From Nitrososphaeraceae archaeon (GTDB taxonomy: Archaea > Thermoproteota > Nitrososphaeria > Nitrososphaerales > Nitrososphaeraceae), in the NCBI GenBank assembly GCA_035250975.1, contig DATFEP010000061.1:32001-96000 (forward strand): DNA of 64,000 nt. The letters are read 5' to 3'. Under the pieces are notes generated by a model. The model did no database searches, was not told where the DNA came from, and worked only from the letters and a program-made list of their open reading frames with translations. This document shows positions 10,085 through 18,675 of the stretch, piece after piece. Both the position numbers and the translations under genes were made by a program. The stretch's first letter is position 1. The number at the start of each line of letters is the position of its first letter.

Positions 10085-10395
10085 TACAATTTTTCTTCTG
10101 TTTTTTAACGTTGATGAAGATTTTTAATAAAAGGCGAATAAAAACATAATTATAGATTTTTGATAATTTGTTTATCAATTCATTTATAATTTTATTTCAT
10201 CAATTTTATTCTTTATTATCTCGAAAGATATGCAAGTTGATTTTGCCAATCTTGTAGTTTTAAAAGTATATTCAATCTATTCCTTTTGAATTATTATATC
10301 TTCTAAATGCTGTCGACAACGTATATAAAAATTTGTTAATAAAGTAATGAAATACATATTTATTGAATTGTCTATTTATTTTGTATTGTCAATTT

Positions 10396-11334
10396 ATGAC
10401 TAGGAAAAATCATTTTTTTGGAAAAGATATAGTATCAATCAAAGATTTTTCTAGGGAAGATCTGGAATTTATTTTTCAAGCGACTGACATAATTAATAAA
10501 TCAGATCCTGATGAGAAAAGCGAATTAGGTAAAGGTAGAACTTTAGGTTACATTTTTTATGAACCTAGTACTAGAACAAGAATGAGTTTTGAAGCAGCGA
10601 TGGCATCCCTTGGAGGTAGCTCGATTGGGATTTTTGATTCTAAATTTTCATCTATTGAAAAAGGTGAAAGTCTAGCTGATACTGTAAGAATAATGGATTT
10701 ATATTCAGACATAATAATTTTAAGACATCCTAGAGACGGTTCAAGCAGATATGCAGCAGAGCTTTCTAATAATCCCATAATCAATGCCGGAAGTGGAAGC
10801 GAAGAACATCCAACACAGGCAATGCTTGATTTATACACCATAAAAAAAGAAAAAGGAAAGATAGATGATCTAACTATCGGAATAGTAGGTGACTTGAAAT
10901 ACGGAAGAACAGTATACTCGTTGTTATATGGATTGCAAAATTATAGAGTAAATATTTATCTGATCTCGCCTCCAACACTGAACATAAGAAAAGAATCAAT
11001 TTATGAAATTCAGAACAAGATAAAAATAAAACAAGAAAATTATTTAAATGACGTGATTACTAAACTGGATGTTTTATATGTTACTAGAATACAGAAAGAA
11101 AGATTTCCAGATGTTCAAGAATATGAAAAAGTTAAGGGCACTTATAGAATCGATGAAAAAATCTTGAATAACACAAAGGCAGATTTGTCCATAATGCATC
11201 CATTGCCAAGATTCGATGAAATATCTCATTCGATTGATGTGTCTCCAAAAGCAATCTATTTCAAACAGGCTGCATATGGTAAAGAGTTAAGAGCAGCTTT
11301 GTTAGCAGTCATATTAAATGAAAATCCTTTTTAG
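10396..11334 (+). CDS. pyrB: Aspartate carbamoyltransferase catalytic subunit
   Basis: FYEPSTRTR, HPTQAMLD, GDLKYGRTV, MHPLPR; ATG 10396 preferred over TTG 10363. Confidence 0.96.
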   Translation: MTRKNHFFGKDIVSIKDFSREDLEFIFQATDIINKSDPDEKSELGKGRTLGYIFYEPSTRTRMSFEAAMASLGGSSIGIFDSKFSSIEKGESLADTVRIMDLYSDIIILRHPRDGSSRYAAELSNNPIINAGSGSEEHPTQAMLDLYTIKKEKGKIDDLTIGIVGDLKYGRTVYSLLYGLQNYRVNIYLISPPTLNIRKESIYEIQNKIKIKQENYLNDVITKLDVLYVTRIQKERFPDVQEYEKVKGTYRIDEKILNNTKADLSIMHPLPRFDEISHSIDVSPKAIYFKQAAYGKELRAALLAVILNENPF

Positions 11335-11446
11335 AATTCGATTATAAAAATTACGACAAGTATTCTGACATTATTTTACTGTCAAGTAATACATTTAGTC
11401 ACTAGCTGATATAATTAACATAAAGTAACACATTGACTATTACTTG

Positions 11447-12377
11447 CAAAATATTAAAAACAAAATTTGAAAAAATATACAAATCTGAACACGATACTAA
11501 TGTAAAGCAAGGAACTCCACTTGTTATAGCATATGATAAACAGATTCCTGCAGAATTAGTAAGAGATCTTCACAAAAGTATAACAAGGTTCTAATTGTTT
11601 GAAAAGATACCATGAAGAACGTAAAGAAGAAGGATTAAATTTCGTGTAAAAGTGGCAGACTAGCAGAATTATGTAAAATGATTATACAAAATAAAAATTG
11701 AAAATCCTCTAGCCAAGATGTTACAGATCTAATTGTCAAAACTAGTGAAATTAGATATCCTCACATATACTGTTTGTTTCACAGTTTGGGATTCGAACAG
11801 AAGTGCCAAGAAAAGTACATATAAACACTGCATCTAAAAAAAGATAATGAATGTTTTATAAAATAACATAAAGATACACACCATAATATCCAAAACTGAT
11901 TCACATTAGTATCTACTGATGAATCGTTCAACATCTTATTAGATTATCTAAAACAGGTTCAGAGGAAATTTCCAAAATGTTATTCCTTCTTGGATAATGC
12001 AAAACAACATAGTTACAGATCAAAAAAAGTACTGAAATATTTTGATAAACATTCAAAGATTCTGATTCATATAAGTCAGGTGTCGTCATGAATATCATCA
12101 CACCATCTTTCCAAATTTTATGTCTAGATATTCAAAAATGTAGTTATTTTAGTTGAAAGATACGACATCAACAAAACATCTGACTTATTTGCCAACAGCA
12201 TCTCTGGAATTCATAATGCCTGATGAAACGCGAAACAAATACAAAAAGATCTTCCCGTTTTATATTATTACTGGCTCTACAGATTTTAGAAGTAAAATAT
12301 CCAAATATTTTAGAACAAAAAGATTTCACCTGGATATGAGAAACTACCTGTTTCAAGGTCAAGATAAAATATACTAA
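11447..12377 (+). pseudogene. Decayed IS630-family transposase
   Basis: Frameshifted fragments: HTH-like 'KIYKSEHDTNVKQ...DKQIPAELVRDLHKS', DDE-region 'YLKQVQRKFPKCYSFLDNAKQH..RSKKVLKYF' and 'YLPTASLEF...ISKYFRTKRFHLDMRNYLF'; boundaries approximate. Confidence 0.75.
12074..12185. mobile_element. 112-bp MITE-like insertion with TA target-site duplication
   Basis: Ends AGTCAGGTGT / ACATCTGACT (9/10 inverted match), flanked by TA (12072-73, 12186-87); excision rejoins the host transposase as ...IYLPTA... Confidence 0.65.
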
Positions 12378-12458
12378 TCGGTATAGTTTATAGAATGAAA
12401 CAATTTTATGATTTTTAAATTATAATACATAAAAATTTGGAAAATGGTTAATTGTGCG

Positions 12459-15158
12459 TTATCCAGATACACAACTGCTAAATCCGCATTCTATGCACAC
12501 ATTACATCCCTCAGTGATAACGAGTTTTGATTTACAAGATGGACACAGTTCACTTTCGTCTATTTCCATTACTGTCTTTTGAATTAATTCCATATTCTTG
12601 TTAAAATTTGAAGTTATCAAAACTTCTTGTTCTTCTTTTTTCACGTTATCAAATATTTTACTTAGATATTGAACTATATATGGCTCTTTTATATGGGTAT
12701 GAATATAATTAGTAACATAATCACTTGGTTTTACAATGAAAGATTTTTCGAATGTATTTGTTCCTGGAATATGTAAAACCTGTTCATTTCTTGAGCCATC
12801 TCTATATACAGTAACACCCTTTAATCCCAATTCATGAGAAAGTAGATATGAAGATTTTACATCTTCCACTGTGACGTCTCCAGGCATATTTATTGTCTTT
12901 GCAATAGCATTACTTATCCATTTTTGCCATATTGACTGCGCCATGATATGATCTGTCCAATGAATATCTATTGCTGTTGTAAATATGGATTGTATCCATT
13001 TAGGAATTTCATCAAGACCTCTAACAGATCCATAATTATTTGCTATTTTTGTTAATATTTCATCATTATAAAGACCATTTTCTTTTAATATATTTTCAAA
13101 TATTTTATTAGTATAGAAAAATCTTCCAACAGTAACACGTTTTTCAAAAACCAGTGCAAAAACAGGCTCAACACCGTTAGAACAGTCTGCTATCATGGAT
13201 AATGTACCGGTTGGAGCGATTGTAGTAGTCCAAGAATTACGTATTCCAAATTTTCGGATTTTCTCGGTTAAAGATTCCCAATCATAAGCGTGCTGTTCTT
13301 TTGGTATTTCATAACATCCAGATATAGGTATTTTTCCATTCACATAATCAGTTTCTTTGAACAATGGAAAAGGTCCTCTAGATTTAGCAACAGCAACACT
13401 TTCTTCCATGCTATAATAGGTTAATGTTTCAGCTAGTTTATTCATAAATTCATAACCTTCTGTCGATGTGTAGGGAATGCGTAACAAAAACAATAGGTCT
13501 GCTATTCCCATTATTCCCAATCCTATCCTTCTCGTAAGTTTAGTATTGTAATCGATTTCTTCTATTGGATATTTGTTCACATCTATAACATTATCAAGAA
13601 ATCGCGATGACAAACGTATCGCCTGCTCATATCTATGCCAATCAAATTCATACATACCATCTGCCTTTCTTTTAACAAAATTTGCGAGATTTATAGATCC
13701 TAAATTACAGGATTCGTAAGGATATAATGATTGTTCGCCACACGGATTGGTAGCCCTCAATGGACCATTTTTAGCTTTGAGGCATGGATTGTATTTATTA
13801 ATATTGTCAAAAAATATCACACCGGGTTCGGCACTTTTCCATGCACTTAAAGATATAAGATCTATCAATTGATGCGAATCTATCTGTTTTACGGGTTCGT
13901 GGGTTCTTGGATTTTTGAGTGTAAATTTATTGCTGTTTTTATTTATCAAAGATGTCCAGAAATCATCCCACAGTCCTACACTTACATTAAAGTTTTCAAA
14001 TACACCTGATTTCGTCTTTGCAGTAATGAATTTTTCAATATCAGGATGCCAAGCTTCCAATATCCCCATGTTTGCACCCCGTCTTTTACCTCCCTGCTTT
14101 ACAACATCAGTAATGGTATCAATGATTCTCATAAAGGATGCAGGTCCTGATGCAACTCCAGATGTAGATGCAACTATGTCACCTTCAGGTCTGAGATCCG
14201 AATAATTTATTCCCACCCCACCTCCAGATTTAAAAATCATGGCCGCATCAGAAGATGTTTTCATGATCAGACCCATATCATCAGGCATATCTAGGACAAA
14301 GCATGCTGAAAGTTGACCTAATCTTGCTCCAGCATTCATTAATGTAGGTGTGTTGGGAAGAAAATCTTTTGAGACCATTAATTCATAATATTCTTTGATT
14401 TTGTCTTCAAAACATGTAAATTTCCCTTGTACAATTAATTTTAATATTTCCTTAAATGATAATTTCATTTGTCCTCTGGAGCATAATTGAACAAATAATC
14501 GTATCAGAGATTCAAAGTGATATTTATTAAGATAATATTCACCTATTTTCAATTTCAGATCGAACTCGTTTATTTTATCATAGTAATTGGTTGCTTCTTC
14601 AATATCCTGATTGTATCCTCCAGCCAAATTGAAAATAAGAGGGTCATGTAATATATCAGCAATAGACACAAGAATCGCAACTCTTTCGAACATCTCCTTG
14701 GGTCCTTCAATAATCTCATTATTATCATCACGCAAGAGATAACGGGATGATAAAACGCGTAAAGAATTGATATCAAAAGACTTGTCAACTTCATCCAAAT
14801 CTTTTTTATTGAGAATTTTCATTTTATCTTCTCTTAGTTTTCTTCTTTCATGTCTATAGAGAATATAAGACTTCGCAGTATCTGCAAGACCATCTTCTAT
14901 TAAAATTGATTCAACTATATCCTGAACATCTTCAACACTTGGAATTAAGCCCTTTTCAAATGAATTCCTAGTGATCTTTTCTAGTACCTTATGACTCAAT
15001 GTTTCAGCTAGTTTAAAATCTGGTTTACCAGTTGCAACCAATGCCTTGTAAATGGCATGTGATATTTTTGCTTCATCAAAATTAACAACTCTACCATCTC
15101 GTTTTTTTATTTGAAAAATAGAATTATTTTTTGATTTGTTTACTTCAGATACTCCCAT
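12459..15158 (-). CDS. nrdJ: Adenosylcobalamin-dependent (class II) ribonucleotide reductase with N-terminal ATP cone
   Basis: IKKRDGRVVNFD cone, PNTPTLMNAG, LSACF, TNPCGEQ, CNLGSINL, TIAPTGT, C-terminal Zn ribbon; ATG 15158 preferred over TTG 15185. Confidence 0.96.
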   Translation of the reverse strand: MGVSEVNKSKNNSIFQIKKRDGRVVNFDEAKISHAIYKALVATGKPDFKLAETLSHKVLEKITRNSFEKGLIPSVEDVQDIVESILIEDGLADTAKSYILYRHERRKLREDKMKILNKKDLDEVDKSFDINSLRVLSSRYLLRDDNNEIIEGPKEMFERVAILVSIADILHDPLIFNLAGGYNQDIEEATNYYDKINEFDLKLKIGEYYLNKYHFESLIRLFVQLCSRGQMKLSFKEILKLIVQGKFTCFEDKIKEYYELMVSKDFLPNTPTLMNAGARLGQLSACFVLDMPDDMGLIMKTSSDAAMIFKSGGGVGINYSDLRPEGDIVASTSGVASGPASFMRIIDTITDVVKQGGKRRGANMGILEAWHPDIEKFITAKTKSGVFENFNVSVGLWDDFWTSLINKNSNKFTLKNPRTHEPVKQIDSHQLIDLISLSAWKSAEPGVIFFDNINKYNPCLKAKNGPLRATNPCGEQSLYPYESCNLGSINLANFVKRKADGMYEFDWHRYEQAIRLSSRFLDNVIDVNKYPIEEIDYNTKLTRRIGLGIMGIADLLFLLRIPYTSTEGYEFMNKLAETLTYYSMEESVAVAKSRGPFPLFKETDYVNGKIPISGCYEIPKEQHAYDWESLTEKIRKFGIRNSWTTTIAPTGTLSMIADCSNGVEPVFALVFEKRVTVGRFFYTNKIFENILKENGLYNDEILTKIANNYGSVRGLDEIPKWIQSIFTTAIDIHWTDHIMAQSIWQKWISNAIAKTINMPGDVTVEDVKSSYLLSHELGLKGVTVYRDGSRNEQVLHIPGTNTFEKSFIVKPSDYVTNYIHTHIKEPYIVQYLSKIFDNVKKEEQEVLITSNFNKNMELIQKTVMEIDESELCPSCKSKLVITEGCNVCIECGFSSCVSG

Positions 15159-15229
15159 ACAGCTCGCCTTCCAATTTTTTAACAATCATCATTATTTATA
15201 AGAATTGTGAATTGAAAATACCAATAAAA

Positions 15230-15310
15230 ATATTATATCAGGGGGTTAGATACAATCTTTAAACCATAGATTTTGGGTTATTTATCGATGTAAACCATAC
15301 ATGTCAATAG
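15230..15310. promoter_or_regulatory. Putative operator array upstream of nrdJ
   Basis: AAACCATA at 15261 and 15292 (31 bp apart); imperfect palindrome AACCATAGATTTTGGGTT 15262-15279; GGGTT half-site again about 32 bp further on; TATA-like TTATAAAT on the - strand at 15201-15194. Confidence 0.35.
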
Positions 15311-15333
15311 CTAGATTCTATAGTCATTTGTTA

Positions 15334-17475
15334 TTATATAGATATTAATGAAATCTTATGGGAACCACAGTATTCACAAATTCTATTATTAGCACGTTGG
15401 GATCGTTTTCCACAAATATTGCATAGGGTCAACCCATAGGTCATCCGAACAAAAGGGAGATCGAGTGATGATTCAATTAAAGTTCTAACATCTTTATCGG
15501 TAGAAATATTTTCAATATCGATATCAATAGAAAGATTTCCTTTCAGAATATTTTCTACAGCACAGTAATGATCACATATTGATTTCAAAGAAAGATTATT
15601 TGATAGCACATCTGTGCCCTTAATTTGAAAACCTTGTGAATAAAGCTCGTCTTTATCGTTAGATGAATTGTCAGAAATTGCGGTAGATTTACCGTATTTC
15701 TCGTTGTCTAGACTCTTGAATCGATTTGAACTTTCATCTTTTAATATGGCTATTCCTAGACTTGAATTTGATAATTCTTTAGTTTGTTCACTTATTATAT
15801 CTACAGCCGTCTGTATCACTTTACAAACAATATTTTCACCGTCGTTTCCAAACTTGTAACCTAAAATATTATAAATTGATTCATTAATTCCAACTAAATT
15901 TATCATAGCATCTATCTTGCCAAGTTGTAGATTAGAAGTAATTTTTGCTAGTAGTGGTGTTGTTCCCTTTTGTATATGCTCGGATATATTACTGACACGC
16001 TGGTAGATGACAGATATTAGCGGTTTAAGCAATAACGCAAGTCTTGCTCTAAAATATGTCTCATCTCTATTTGATTGATATGCTATTCGTGGGAGATTTA
16101 TTGACAAAGATTGAAGTGTTACTACCGTGGTTTTTACGGAAGGATGAACTGCTTTGCAAAGGCCGTACCTTCCCCGTATCTTTTGTTGAGAAAATGACAT
16201 AATTCCACCAAGTCTAGAAATCTTTGCAATTTTATCAGTATATTTGTAAATGCTGTTTCGGTCTTCGCAGACGAGAGACAAACCAATATTGGGAATAGGA
16301 GTATTTACTATGTACCTGTAGTATCCATCAATTACAATATCTATCAGGGAAGAATTAGAGCCATCTAGATTGATAGGCAACGTGATGTAGGGGGAAAATG
16401 ACGAAACAGATGATATTGAAGATGAAAGAAAAAGGATTTTAGAAACTTTATTAACAAGGTTTTCGTCGCTCTGAGCATATTTCGCAAGAAACTCAATGAA
16501 TCCCTCTAAAACTACTTCACGAGAAACCTCTCTAGTTAAAAGGGAGAGTAACAAAGGAATAATTGAATCATAATCATGTGCGTTACATAAGGAACTTATC
16601 CTTGAAATCCCTAGATACTTCCCTTTAATATCAGAAAGACTATCTACTACAGAATTTAGATTTATGAAAATTGTATCAGGAAGTAAATTCCAGAACCCGC
16701 TCTTACCAATATTAATTTCACCCATCAAATGCATATCTACAATATCTTTTGGGAGAGAATTATTAAGCAGATATTCAGTAAAAATTGAAGAGGCTGTCTT
16801 TATGAAAAGATCGGAAATTTCTACATTCGAACCCGTATCATTAATAATATTTATCAAATCTATTGGGGGTATTCCTAATCGTGCAAGTTTATTTCTATAT
16901 TCATCATATCCATGATCTACTAGGACTGAGTTGGTAGTTTCCCTTATTAGTGATGATGTTAGATAAGATGTTTGAATTTTGTAGATCTTATTCTCCACTT
17001 CCTCCGTAATCTTATTTGCAAGTTCCAAAGGCATATTGGCTTCACGTACTAAAGACTGAATAATTTTATTAGAATCAAATTCTTCTATCGAAGGTTTCGT
17101 AGTCCTAACATACAACTTCCCGCTTTCTATTATCGATCTTTCCTCTATTTGACGAGCGAGACTTAAAACTAATTTACCGAGATTAGTTATAGTATATCTT
17201 CTTTCTGCCTTATTAAGAGACACTAAAGATTGTCTAAGTAATTTTCTTAGATGATAAGCAAATTTGCCAGATTCTTTCTTTGATTTAAATCCTGCTAATG
17301 ATTTTAATTCAGAATAAGTTAATGGCCCCTTAGAATTTAAAATTCTGAGAATATCTATACGATTAGGACTCGCCATGACTGAAAAAATCATTCTTACACG
17401 TCTTGAAGCTGATTCTAAAATTCCACCACGTTTCAAACTTGTCCTATTCGTGGTTTGGTATTGTACTCGCTCCAT
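15334..17475 (-). CDS. wHTH (ArsR-like) + ATP-cone + degenerate class III RNR (NrdD-like) fusion; probable regulator
   Basis: ASPNRIDILRIL...FAYHLRKL wHTH; VRTTKPSIEEFDSNKIIQSL cone; HLMGEINI, SINLPRIA, RFKSLDNEKYG, CxxC..CxxC NrdD remnants; no RxxGY glycyl-radical motif; ATG 17475 preferred over TTG 17496. Confidence 0.8.
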   Translation of the reverse strand: MERVQYQTTNRTSLKRGGILESASRRVRMIFSVMASPNRIDILRILNSKGPLTYSELKSLAGFKSKKESGKFAYHLRKLLRQSLVSLNKAERRYTITNLGKLVLSLARQIEERSIIESGKLYVRTTKPSIEEFDSNKIIQSLVREANMPLELANKITEEVENKIYKIQTSYLTSSLIRETTNSVLVDHGYDEYRNKLARLGIPPIDLINIINDTGSNVEISDLFIKTASSIFTEYLLNNSLPKDIVDMHLMGEINIGKSGFWNLLPDTIFINLNSVVDSLSDIKGKYLGISRISSLCNAHDYDSIIPLLLSLLTREVSREVVLEGFIEFLAKYAQSDENLVNKVSKILFLSSSISSVSSFSPYITLPINLDGSNSSLIDIVIDGYYRYIVNTPIPNIGLSLVCEDRNSIYKYTDKIAKISRLGGIMSFSQQKIRGRYGLCKAVHPSVKTTVVTLQSLSINLPRIAYQSNRDETYFRARLALLLKPLISVIYQRVSNISEHIQKGTTPLLAKITSNLQLGKIDAMINLVGINESIYNILGYKFGNDGENIVCKVIQTAVDIISEQTKELSNSSLGIAILKDESSNRFKSLDNEKYGKSTAISDNSSNDKDELYSQGFQIKGTDVLSNNLSLKSICDHYCAVENILKGNLSIDIDIENISTDKDVRTLIESSLDLPFVRMTYGLTLCNICGKRSQRANNRICEYCGSHKISLISI

Positions 17476-17582
17476 TGCACCCGTTATAATTAACAAGTAA
17501 TTAAAACTACCTTGTAAAGTTTTTTTTACAAATAATATAATGTATTGTAATTAACCAATTGAACAAATAAAATTAATAACTG

Positions 17583-18191
17583 TTATATCAAAACTGGCTG
17601 ACTTTCATGAAACTCGTTATCTTGTTCCTTGTGAATTCGTTTTTTATGTATACGCGTCGGTACTTCCGGCAGTTTGTTTTTGGTATCCTCTTCCATTACA
17701 GATTGTACTTCATTAAGAATGTCCAATGCCTCAGTGTTTACAGGAAAGTGAATAGTATCTGACTGTAGGTTTAGGCTGGTATTTATCAAAACATTATCAG
17801 TTAAAGATGACATCTCTGAGAAAAGTTGTTTTGCATGTGGAACTGTATTATCTATATCTATCTGAACTTCTTTTATTGTATTAATCATTGGATTTATTGT
17901 ATCTAAAATTCCAGCAAATTCGGAAATAGTAGAAAATCTAATAACTATTACCTCCAGTGCTATTGACAATTTTTGTGTTATATTTTTTATTTTCCTAATA
18001 TTTACCAATTCGCGAGCAATGACTTTAGCGTTACTAGTATCACCGTTCTTTATGTTAATTGCAACCTTACCTGATAATTCCCTATCAAGTGAGACGAATC
18101 TTTTATCAAGTATCCTCATTTTGGCAAGTTGTGTATTAACAACCACGGTTGCATGAGCAAGTCTGTTTTGAAGCTGGGGATACTTTTCCAC
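17583..18191 (-). CDS. ESCRT-III / Snf7-family CdvB paralog
   Basis: Helical Snf7 core (AKVIARELVNIRKIK...LEVIVIRFSTI), 'EALDILNEVQSVMEEDTKNKLPEVP' C-terminal motif. Confidence 0.8.
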   Translation of the reverse strand: MEKYPQLQNRLAHATVVVNTQLAKMRILDKRFVSLDRELSGKVAINIKNGDTSNAKVIARELVNIRKIKNITQKLSIALEVIVIRFSTISEFAGILDTINPMINTIKEVQIDIDNTVPHAKQLFSEMSSLTDNVLINTSLNLQSDTIHFPVNTEALDILNEVQSVMEEDTKNKLPEVPTRIHKKRIHKEQDNEFHESQPVLI

Positions 18192-18288
18192 AACATCGTA
18201 TTAATTTTCAGGATGTTAACTTTGATGTTAACCAATGTAGACAATTTGATAAAGCATTATAAATTACCAAAACACGACATAGTTAAAT

Positions 18289-18675
18289 TCAGATTTTTTT
18301 AATTACTAGACCATGTTTTTCATCGAATCCAGCTACTTTTACTTTTGAACCGATAGGCAAATCTGATGGTGACTTGATCCCAGGAAGAAAACCAGACACT
18401 CTAATAGCGGCACCTTCAATGGAAAATACTACCCAAGCATAACTTTCTACGTCATCAAATCCTTCGGGAGGGACTGCATGGATCGTGAAAGTAATTACTT
18501 TACCAATACCATCCAATTCTATTACATCAAACTTATTATTTTGACATTTAGTACAATAGACCATCGTTTCTAAAATAAGTGTATGACAATTTCTACAACT
18601 TCTAACTAAAATCTTGGAATTCTTTGCAGAAGAAATGAATTTCTCTCTTAATCCAGAATTCAGTACATCTTTCAC
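18289..18675 (-). CDS. DUF35 Zn-ribbon/OB-fold acyl-CoA-binding partner of thiolase
   Basis: CRNC...CTKC, G-x-V-x-TFTI, PPEGF; follows the thiolase. Confidence 0.85.
   Translation of the reverse strand: MKDVLNSGLREKFISSAKNSKILVRSCRNCHTLILETMVYCTKCQNNKFDVIELDGIGKVITFTIHAVPPEGFDDVESYAWVVFSIEGAAIRVSGFLPGIKSPSDLPIGSKVKVAGFDEKHGLVIKKI

Follow-up and report, generated by a model that had tools for sequence, protein, structure and literature searches.

We consider here a 64,000-nucleotide stretch of DNA from a Nitrososphaeraceae archaeon (GenBank assembly GCA_035250975.1, contig DATFEP010000061.1, positions 32,001 to 96,000), called the window in the following, and in particular a gene in it that encodes a protein of 713 amino acids. 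This 713-aa protein and its relatives are together referred to as the wHTH-cone-NrdD family. The source genome, whose nearest named relatives are uncultured Nitrososphaerales/Nitrososphaeraceae, has a size of 2.49 Mb and is 94.6% complete. At the locus, the gene is followed on the same strand by nrdJ for a class II ribonucleotide reductase (RNR), and then by a convergent pyrB (Table 1). An earlier interpretation, called the sequence-only reading below, described the protein as a dead homologue of the class III reductase NrdD, fused to a winged helix-turn-helix (wHTH) domain and an ATP-cone, and proposed that it regulates RNR genes. The structural part of this description is well supported by the Pfam domains, the catalytic columns and the lack of an activase.

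Table 1. Features of the locus, with positions in the window.
Feature	Position	Strand	Basis or remark
Gene for the 713-aa wHTH/ATP-cone/dead-NrdD protein	15334..17475	-	uninterrupted open reading frame, Pfam architecture, orthologues
wHTH, residues 29-115 (ArsR-like, DUF7347)	17131..17391	-	Pfam, profile matches, identity
ATP-cone, residues 116-200, 'VRTS' variant	16876..17130	-	Pfam, conservation
NrdD-derived region, residues 201-680 (linker and alpha/beta barrel), without conserved catalytic residues	15436..16875	-	PF13597, PDB chains
C-terminal Cys4 zinc ribbon (C685, C688, C700, C703), no glycyl-radical loop	15337..15435	-	four invariant Cys
Conserved promoter block, TTGTAAA-N6-TTTACAA, then AAGGTAG and TTTTAAT	17499..17531	-	candidate autoregulatory site
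175-nt spacer between the gene and nrdJ	15159..15333	-	holds ATGTATGGTTTACAT (15288-15302) and the TATA-like TTATAAATA before nrdJ
nrdJ, class II (B12-dependent) RNR with its own ATP-cone	12459..15158	-	TIGR02504, PF02867
pyrB (aspartate carbamoyltransferase), convergent with nrdJ	10363..11334	+	TIGR00670, 355.8 bits (cut-off 236.95)

The open reading frame (ORF) starts with an ATG at 17475 and ends with a stop codon at 15334-15336. Pfam finds the domains in the order given by the sequence-only reading, with DUF7347 (40.2 bits, cut-off 27.6, residues 30-104) and HTH_20 (32.1 bits, cut-off 27, residues 34-85) at the N-terminus, followed by the ATP-cone PF03477 (36.8 bits, cut-off 25.8, residues 122-193) and then NRDD, PF13597 (59.3 bits, cut-off 26.2, residues 225-709 on profile positions 14-534 of 562). 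Since the last match ends at position 534 of 562, the glycyl-radical end of the profile is unmatched. The landmarks that had been quoted (HLMGEINI, SINLPRIA, INLVGINESI, RFKSLDNEKYG, YSQG and CNIC...CEYC...SLISI*) are all present in the translation, and the protein indeed terminates 10 residues past the last ribbon cysteine, before the RxxGY loop.

A profile of the family matches HlyU, NolR and ArsR chains in the PDB at E ~1e-3, and the wHTH scores below the cut-offs of HTH_5 (11.0 bits, cut-off 22) and of the NCBIfam metalloregulator model NF033788 (23.7 bits, cut-off 55). The same profile matches the solved NrdDs at 1.4e-42 (9d3x), 7.2e-41 (8p23), 1.4e-33 (T4 1h78) and 7.1e-33 (T. maritima 4coi). 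Because it recognises them over the whole barrel, the homology to NrdD is not in doubt. A phmmer search of the PDB sequences with the single 713-aa sequence gave chance-level matches only, the top one being influenza PA with an E-value of 0.12, and the match to the NCBIfam NrdD equivalog TIGR02487 has 57.6 bits (cut-off 326.35).

To follow the catalytic residues, 62 family members were aligned with 18 real NrdDs, namely those of E. coli K-12, of twelve archaea with an adjacent NrdG, and of five archaea in which the enzyme is encoded beside a family member. In the E. coli enzyme we took C175, C384 and G681 to be the catalytic positions, and the K-12 sequence has C, C and G there. For P. copri NrdD, catalytic roles are given to Cys171, Cys416 and Gly711-Tyr712 in the accessible part of PMC11226230. 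All 18 real NrdDs have the cysteine of the first strand (beta-1), the thiyl cysteine of the G/C-C-R finger loop and the R-[IV]-x-G-Y motif. Among the family members, the beta-1 cysteine (E. coli C175, P. copri C171) is found in none of the 62, P0001 having Thr at this position. A cysteine within two residues of the thiyl column (E. coli C384, P. copri C416) is lacking in 59 of 62, the three exceptions being the protein of locus L145 (TGCRF), P0183 and the 713-aa protein. The statement of the sequence-only reading that no catalytic cysteine is visible holds for the beta-1 residue, which is gone, and for the thiyl residue, which is not conserved; it has to be qualified for C440 of the 713-aa protein (in 'GLCK'), which lies one residue off the thiyl column.

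The glycyl-radical motif, searched as R-[IV]-x-G-[FWY], shows the same. The forms from ammonia-oxidising archaea (AOA) end before the loop, and longer forms from other lineages have a degenerate tail in which the position of the glycine is mostly occupied by A, S, T, N or D. Gly is retained there in a few long forms, followed by R, K or P and never by an aromatic residue, so that no family member has the combination of Gly and an aromatic residue. The glutamate of the TPxE motif, which bridges to the substrate and is Glu581 in P. copri NrdD as described in the accessible text of PMC11226230, is by our own reading of the alignment and the profile match not conserved at its position. The only cysteines invariant in 81/81 AOA orthologues are the four of the ribbon, which are also kept throughout a smaller alignment of 22 sequences (A1). 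The ten ammonia-oxidiser-type sequences in A1 all stop a few residues past the ribbon, and the ORF is intact in 81/81 AOA loci, which rules out a sequencing error as the cause of the early stop. Every examined member of the family lacks the NrdD catalytic set, and the 713-aa protein is almost certainly not a reductase of the known class III type.

The gene content of the source genome is in line with this. Its only match to PF13597 is the 713-aa ORF, and a real NrdD is absent, as it is from all 43 Nitrosopumilaceae-type genomes. The neighbouring nrdJ (TIGR02504 749.6 bits, cut-off 399.95; PF02867 499.8 bits; ATG at 15158) is the sole PF02867 match and the only RNR gene found. No NrdG activase scores over the cut-off in the 94.6%-complete genome (best TIGR02495 48.8 against 131.15, TIGR02491 29.8 against 126.1), a location in the unassembled ~5% still being possible; the absence of nrdG noted earlier for the window is in this way extended to the assembly. 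The best radical-SAM ORF is flanked by ORFs that by eye resemble queC and folE.

A regulator of the bacterial NrdR type is also missing, with no TIGR00244 match in the source genome and none among the 43 Nitrosopumilaceae-type genomes. Among 301 genomes sampled evenly from the phylum, NrdR scores over the cut-off in 16, all of one family (f13), in agreement with the description of NrdR as rare in archaea in the accessible parts of PMC9110341 and PMC12176259. The f13 NrdR (~150 aa, 149-163 bits; e.g. G148:C2:113579-116100) is encoded beside a real nrdD, as the coordinates show for 13/16, and at the f13 loci L151 and L154 the wHTH-cone-NrdD gene adjoins pyrB.

Three further observations concern RNR and ATP-cone proteins. 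The C-terminus of NrdJ (12459-12560) has a CxxC...CxxC zinc-ribbon-like tail, resembling the zinc finger rich in cysteine that the title of PMC5704485 ascribes to most class II RNRs. In the window's own genome (contig C2), L013:916-1764 is an ORF of 282 aa with an N-terminal ATP-cone (35.8 bits) and no NCBIfam match, whose C-terminal part has by eye the look of a restriction endonuclease. On contig C23, L014:1201-1860 is a lysine-rich ORF of 219 aa with a weak ATP-cone match of 21.1 bits, below the cut-off.

We now turn to the constraint on the individual domains, which was assessed from 81 AOA orthologues (mean pairwise identity) and from Nei-Gojobori ratios of nonsynonymous to synonymous substitution (dN/dS) for 25 non-overlapping close pairs. 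Identity of the full-length orthologues to the 713-aa protein runs from 95-98% down to ~47%. By domain, the identity falls from 0.97 in the wHTH (dN/dS 0-0.02) and 0.84 in the ATP-cone (0-0.04) to 0.53 in the N-terminal part of the NrdD region (0-0.23), 0.44 in the barrel (0.05-0.19) and 0.37 in the zinc ribbon (0-0.45). This ranking of wHTH over cone over barrel is the outcome of the per-domain comparison that the sequence-only reading had suggested as a check. All domains are under purifying selection, none is decaying, and the wHTH-cone unit is nearly frozen. This means that function is concentrated in a two-module unit of the NrdR kind.

The same picture is seen at the level of residues. 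Invariant in A1 are G70, F72, Y74 and H75 of the putative recognition helix, whose place in the 713-aa protein we take from the usual layout of ArsR-type wHTH domains, and V123, F133, I138, E145, I177 and R178 of the cone. In a larger alignment (A2, 86 sequences), H75, V123, F133, I138, E145 and I177 are still invariant, and the remaining residues of the A1 set are conserved to at least 90%. Conserved positions of the barrel are INLPR, R585, D590 and Y612. For NrdR, the accessible text of PMC9110341 reports that mutation of V48, E56, F58 or K62 impaired nucleotide binding and that K50 is essential. By our own residue count on the translation, the equivalents of the first four are V123, E131, F133 and K137 of the cone. 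We read the cone as functional, as a prediction, because active NrdDs carry the same variant.

The family is widespread. It is present in 216/301 genomes of the sample mentioned above, and in 43/43 genomes of the sister AOA family (Nitrosopumilaceae-type) at ~49% identity. A word-index search, in which 8000 candidates were scored, gave 4057 proteins at E <= 0.001; the architecture is shared by the 120 best matches, of which 119 contain all four Pfam families. An exhaustive search of representatives gave 884 clusters at E <= 0.001. Outside the AOA there are long forms of 740-800 aa whose NrdD match runs to the end of the profile or nearly so, the two clusters examined being named Bathyarchaeota/Bathyarchaeia at the source, and short forms of 529-602 aa without the ribbon, in clusters that carry the names Ca. 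Caldarchaeum and Ca. Terraquivivens. Members of the Caldarchaeum type (529-545 aa) have kept the wHTH and cone, and their NrdD part is no longer picked up by Pfam or by a custom NrdD hidden Markov model. A search for a stand-alone wHTH and cone gave 571 short matches, mostly of variable length, on short contigs or marked 'partial'; a few are on long contigs (P0274, P0297, P0367, P0364), and split genes and fragments are not distinguishable in this set. Among look-alike clusters in the ESM Atlas, Promethearchaeota and Nanobdellota are the commonest phyla for related architectures, which we regard as leads only.

In the databases, the members bear the names 'anaerobic ribonucleoside-triphosphate reductase', 'ribonucleoside-triphosphate reductase (formate)', 'ArsR family transcriptional regulator' and 'hypothetical protein'. 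The mislabelling by annotation pipelines that had been predicted does occur, in the first form and in the '(formate)' form. In the interpretation of metagenomes, the first label could falsely suggest anaerobic DNA synthesis in aerobic nitrifiers. In full-text searches of the literature we found no description of the family or of the domain combination, which agrees with the earlier statement that no characterisation is known; tables of RNRdb or supplements to RNR phylogenies may list the sequences. The family is unmentioned in the accessible portions of the RNR phylogeny and NrdR papers 10.1101/2022.04.23.489257, PMC3019208 and PMC12176259.

Next, the neighbourhood of the gene is considered. 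The figures given here are counts and not statistics, because related genomes are not independent. In the window, the spacer of 175 nt and the common minus strand agree with the earlier description of nrdJ as co-oriented and ~175 bp downstream. This synteny extends over the AOA. Of the 67 loci whose sequence continues for at least 1 kb past the gene, 58 have a co-oriented nrdJ no further than 1.5 kb downstream, with gaps of 69-1331 nt.

For comparison, 40 loci from 22 other GTDB families were collected, with seeds verified against Pfam and NCBIfam. Seven of them have an RNR gene immediately downstream (five real nrdD, two nrdJ), and pyrB occurs in 19, pyrI in 15 and the archaeal pyrH in 6. Taken together, an RNR gene, pyrB, pyrI or pyrH lies within 600 bp in 25/40; it is missing at this distance in 15 and from the entire fetched stretch in 14. 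In these lineages the family gene often starts 26-201 bp from a divergent pyrH or pyrB, and the two genes therefore have a common promoter region. The order of the window, with the family gene and the RNR gene in one direction and pyrB convergent, recurs at L140 and L145 with a real nrdD in place of nrdJ. The class of RNR at the locus thus varies, and the wHTH-cone-NrdD gene upstream of it stays.

Some other features of these neighbourhoods may be recorded here. Directly upstream of the gene in the window, and co-oriented with it, is a gene at 17583-18191 (-) for a 202-aa ESCRT-III/CdvB-like paralogue (NF041005 64 bits, cut-off 350), so that a gene of the cell-division type adjoins the putative dNTP regulator. 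The ~1.1 kb between pyrB and nrdJ (11335-12458) hold no ORF >74 aa, no tRNA, no Rfam match and no pyrI; by tblastn, pyrI is found in 1 and pyrB in 20 of the 81 AOA loci. At three Nitrososphaera-type loci (L082, L086, L108), the tblastn footprint of nrdJ measures ~3.8 kb instead of 2.7 kb, which suggests an insertion such as an intein. Four loci of one Nitrososphaeraceae group (L078, L081, L083, L099) have no nrdJ downstream, and by eye show look-alikes of an XPF/Hef-type nuclease, prefoldin and exosome subunits. Finally, ten of the 40 non-AOA loci (L161-L163, L165, L166, L169, L170, L173, L175, L176) have a gene with a PUA/TGT_C2 domain 320-900 bp downstream on the opposite strand. Such a gene occurs anywhere in the stretch in 12/40 and is accompanied by an opposite-strand NAC-domain gene (13/40), and the pair makes up another conserved neighbourhood, one without an evident connection to nucleotides.

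Upstream of the gene, the window has a promoter block that is conserved among its relatives. The motif AAAG[TG][AT]G[TC]TTTAAT is found at 51 of 78 AOA loci, all of them Nitrososphaeraceae-type, and in the consensus of the block an inverted repeat with an A/T spacer is followed by AAAGTAG and then by TTTTAAT. The distance from the end of the block to the assigned ATG is 23-25 nt in 50/51 loci and 107 nt in L089. In archaeal promoters, the TATA element precedes the start site by ~26 nt. An in-frame TTG at 17496 is an unlikely start codon, because it lies only ~4 nt past the conserved TATA-like TTTTAAT. A position weight matrix of the block scores 39.2 at the window copy, and no other place in the 2.49-Mb genome exceeds 5.4. 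In the palindrome tally, GTAAA-N6-TTTAC is present upstream of the gene at 26/78 AOA loci; the genome has 5 copies of it, compared with ~11 by a rough composition estimate. The inverted-repeat part alone has look-alikes in the genome, among them one ahead of an ORF that by eye resembles a methionyl-tRNA synthetase and one within an ORF that by eye resembles a valyl/isoleucyl-tRNA synthetase. The block is a fair candidate for autoregulation, and it may simply be a strong conserved promoter.

For the spacer between the gene and nrdJ, the results are less uniform. The two arms of the spacer palindrome differ in the 95%-identical relative L058, and TATGA-N3-TCATA occurs in this spacer at 11/57 loci. 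A direct repeat seen by eye in the window spacer (TATGGTTTA) was discarded as a candidate, as it is not kept in L058. Of 16 Nitrosopumilaceae-type loci, 11 have the palindrome TATGAANTTCATA at a distance of 89-119 nt upstream of nrdJ; it is upstream of the regulator gene in 0/81. With at most one mismatch there are 11-22 copies of TATGAANTTCATA per Nitrosopumilaceae-type genome, compared with 6-12 for the reversed control. Exact copies fall into the spacer in 2/5 genomes, and the other exact copies fetched (three sites, two genomes) lie beside unrelated ORFs. The block and TATGAANTTCATA are each limited to their own AOA family and their own gene. Rfam and tRNA scans of 11000-18300, which include the spacer, gave no match.

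Support for transcription of the locus comes from public RNA libraries. Six metatranscriptome runs contain 30-40% of the sampled words of 12400-17700, and contigs from four runs of four studies, at >=95% likeness, cover the regulator gene and nrdJ (for example X16, 15559-16701 and 16886-17410; X18, 15877-16967); these contigs show neither strand nor level, and their depth cannot rank expression. Contigs of three of the four runs end near 17410-17450, which hints weakly at a 5' end close to the ATG.

As to the origin of the family, its unusual cone 'VRTS...F.D...YL[ST][AG]PLIRE' and its linker 'TR[LV]G.P' recur in the five real NrdDs whose genes adjoin a family gene, and the other real NrdDs have the canonical 'KRDG' cone. 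In a FastTree phylogeny of 528 barrel columns, the family and these five NrdDs form one clade with a support of 1.0, separate from the clade of the other archaeal NrdDs and from E. coli; monophyly of the family itself on the barrel columns is weak (0.39). The barrel branches of the AOA are ~2.4 times as long as those of the other members. In anaerobic lineages the wHTH-cone-NrdD gene is often directly upstream of an active nrdD. The simplest history would be a tandem duplication of a cone-bearing nrdD, after which the upstream copy lost its chemistry and gained the wHTH. The sequence-only reading had implied that the AOA themselves converted an anaerobic RNR, and this has to be abandoned, as the family occurs in 216/301 genomes and coexists with active NrdD in anaerobic lineages. 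Fusion and inactivation are much older than the AOA, whose form is a truncated, fast-evolving derivative.

On this basis, we propose with a probability of roughly 60% that the 713-aa protein is a nucleotide-sensing transcription factor, NrdR-like in its working and built from other parts. In the proposed mechanism, a paralogue of the class III RNR would have lost its radical chemistry and acquired an N-terminal ArsR-like winged helix. The ATP-cone would sense the adenine nucleotide state, ATP versus dATP, as in NrdR and NrdD, and the NrdD-derived barrel with its zinc ribbon would serve mainly as a dimeric scaffold for two wHTH-cone modules. A nucleotide-dependent rearrangement would then alter the binding to promoter DNA, resulting in repression or activation of the targets. 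In the source organism, this would tune the adjacent sole RNR gene nrdJ and probably also the gene itself, and the genes controlled in other lineages would be nrdD, pyrBI and pyrH. The regulatory role claimed by the earlier interpretation finds indirect support, namely in the conservation of wHTH and cone compared with that of the barrel, in the linkage to RNR and pyrimidine genes, and in the absence of NrdR from the AOA.

An extended version of this proposal would make the family an ancient, phylum-wide master regulator of archaeal DNA-precursor supply, which acts on both RNR classes and on pyrBI/pyrH and has two sensors, the cone and the pockets of the barrel. The dead barrel would here keep the effector and substrate pockets of the enzyme, so that the regulator would read the same signals as the enzyme that it governs, and the AOA would have swapped nrdD for nrdJ with the regulator staying at the same locus. 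We consider this possible and rather doubtful.

It is important to point out that a number of results weigh against the transcription factor proposal. Several of these concern the operator, for which scans of k-mers and palindromes gave no shared box. The promoter block and TATGAANTTCATA mark no regulon and no further nucleotide genes elsewhere, and in a comparison of four target sets with 616 control upstream regions, no 6-mer beyond TATA-like words is common to the upstream regions of the regulator gene and of nrdJ in the two AOA families. Since the block and TATGAANTTCATA differ between the families and identity in the wHTH is 97%, no more than one of the two elements can be its site, and such family-specific elements beside a nearly unchanged wHTH are a weakness of the regulator model. 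An adjoining RNR gene is lacking at 9/67 AOA loci and at 33/40 non-AOA loci. In the cone, the position of the essential NrdR K50 (in the accessible account) is taken by T125, with R124 adjacent. NrdR and the wHTH-cone-NrdD protein occur together in 16/16 genomes of f13, and they are therefore not simply interchangeable. The metatranscriptome coverage is support and not proof of transcription, because RNA libraries can contain DNA. To these points comes the proximity of C440 to the thiyl column.

Some of the same results can be read in other ways. If the linkage to RNR and pyr genes were inherited synteny, the protein could be a nucleotide-sensing DNA-binding protein with other targets, such as replication, repair, cell-cycle or chromatin genes. 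The order of family gene, RNR gene and convergent pyrB, which is found from AOA to distant families, could be historical, and the CdvB-like ESCRT-III paralogue upstream in the window would fit such a role, as would the XPF/Hef-type nuclease and exosome-subunit look-alikes (by eye) that follow the gene at AOA loci without nrdJ. However, the downstream partner switches class between nrdD and nrdJ with the position kept, and with pyrH or pyrB divergent at 26-201 bp in other lineages, inertia alone is hard to credit; we regard this explanation as unlikely. The lack of a specific operator could also mean that regulation takes place at the protein level, with the dead barrel docking on RNR or aspartate carbamoyltransferase as an allosteric partner or sequestering subunit and the wHTH used for contacts or non-specific tethering. 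Dead paralogues often serve as regulatory subunits, and the clade, cone and linker that the family has in common with the neighbouring real NrdDs could support mixed dimers in anaerobes. In the AOA, however, there is no NrdD partner (0/43, and none in the source genome) and the protein is kept in 43/43. Moreover, the most constrained domain is the wHTH, with an invariance in A1 of G70, F72, Y74 and H75 of the putative recognition helix that is typical of DNA readers, and lineages that erode the barrel retain wHTH and cone, all of which makes a protein-level role improbable in our judgement.

It could further be asked whether the protein is still an enzyme, either an RNR with an unfamiliar radical source or a barrel recruited for other nucleotide chemistry. 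The low dN/dS of the barrel (0.05-0.19), the invariant ribbon cysteines and the conserved INLPR, R585, D590 and Y612 would be compatible with this, and so would C440 in the clade of the window and the few long forms with Gly at the radical column. On the other hand, C440 is kept in only 15/81 AOA orthologues, the beta-1 cysteine is missing in 62/62 and the thiyl cysteine in 59/62, and Gly with an aromatic residue is found nowhere. The AOA forms are without the whole glycyl loop, the genome has no activase over the cut-off, the Glu of TPxE, as assigned in the accessible source, is not conserved, and in some lineages the barrel is beyond detection by Pfam. A retained enzymatic function is thus very improbable. 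The low NrdD score and the truncated C-terminus might even point to a decaying pseudogene or an annotation artefact, but with the ORF intact in 81/81 loci, dN/dS far below 1 in every domain, the gene present in 43/43 Nitrosopumilaceae-type genomes and contigs in RNA libraries from four studies, this idea can for practical purposes be set aside. Of the readings considered, the transcription factor proposal is the one that we favour.

If it is correct, the family provides a candidate regulator for a phylum in which NrdR is rare (16/301 genomes). It is present in every sampled ammonia-oxidising archaeon, organisms of global importance for nitrogen cycling, and also in Bathyarchaeia and Caldarchaeales. 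It would moreover exemplify the conversion of an enzyme into a regulator, of which graded stages survive in living lineages, namely a full-length dead barrel, a truncated barrel, and a barrel eroded beyond detection.

Compared with known systems, the closest relatives of the family are archaeal NrdDs with the 'VRTS' cone. The cone, linker, barrel and Cys4 zinc ribbon are homologous to those of the class III enzymes (P. copri 8p23, T4 1h78). Unlike these, the 713-aa protein has an extra N-terminal wHTH and no activase, and it scores 57.6 against the 326.35 of TIGR02487. With respect to the P. copri residues named in the accessible part of its description, the equivalents of Cys171 and Gly711-Tyr712 are absent and that of Cys416 is unconserved. 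The wHTH resembles ArsR/SmtB proteins in the HTH_20 match over the cut-off and in the weak matches to HTH_5 and to the ArsR, NolR and HlyU structures, and differs from them in an insert before the putative recognition helix, in the other effector domains and in the NF033788 score (23.7 against 55).

A parallel for the type of conversion is NrtR, a Nudix-related regulator of NAD synthesis that was mis-annotated as an enzyme, according to the abstract of PMC2330246. As far as described there, both combine a metabolic-enzyme fold with a wHTH, are encoded next to the pathway thought to be controlled, and are misannotated as enzymes. The enzyme fold is a different one, and the 713-aa protein has in addition a separate sensor, the ATP-cone.

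In its presumed logic, the 713-aa protein is closest to NrdR. Both have a small DNA-binding domain and an ATP-cone, are encoded beside RNR genes, and would let the ATP/dATP state control DNA binding, and equivalents of V48, E56, F58 and K62, as far as these are described in the accessible source, are kept. The DNA-binding domain of NrdR is, however, a zinc ribbon and not an ArsR-like wHTH, and NrdR has nothing that corresponds to the dead NrdD barrel of 500 residues and the C-terminal zinc ribbon. T125 at the K50 position and the pyrB, pyrI and pyrH genes in the context of the family are further differences. By the profiles that define them, the 713-aa protein is neither an NrdD enzyme nor a member of the NrdR family; it is a protein with an ATP-cone and an ArsR-like wHTH. 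We predict that it is probably an ATP-cone-based regulator of nucleotide supply derived from a dead copy of an enzyme.

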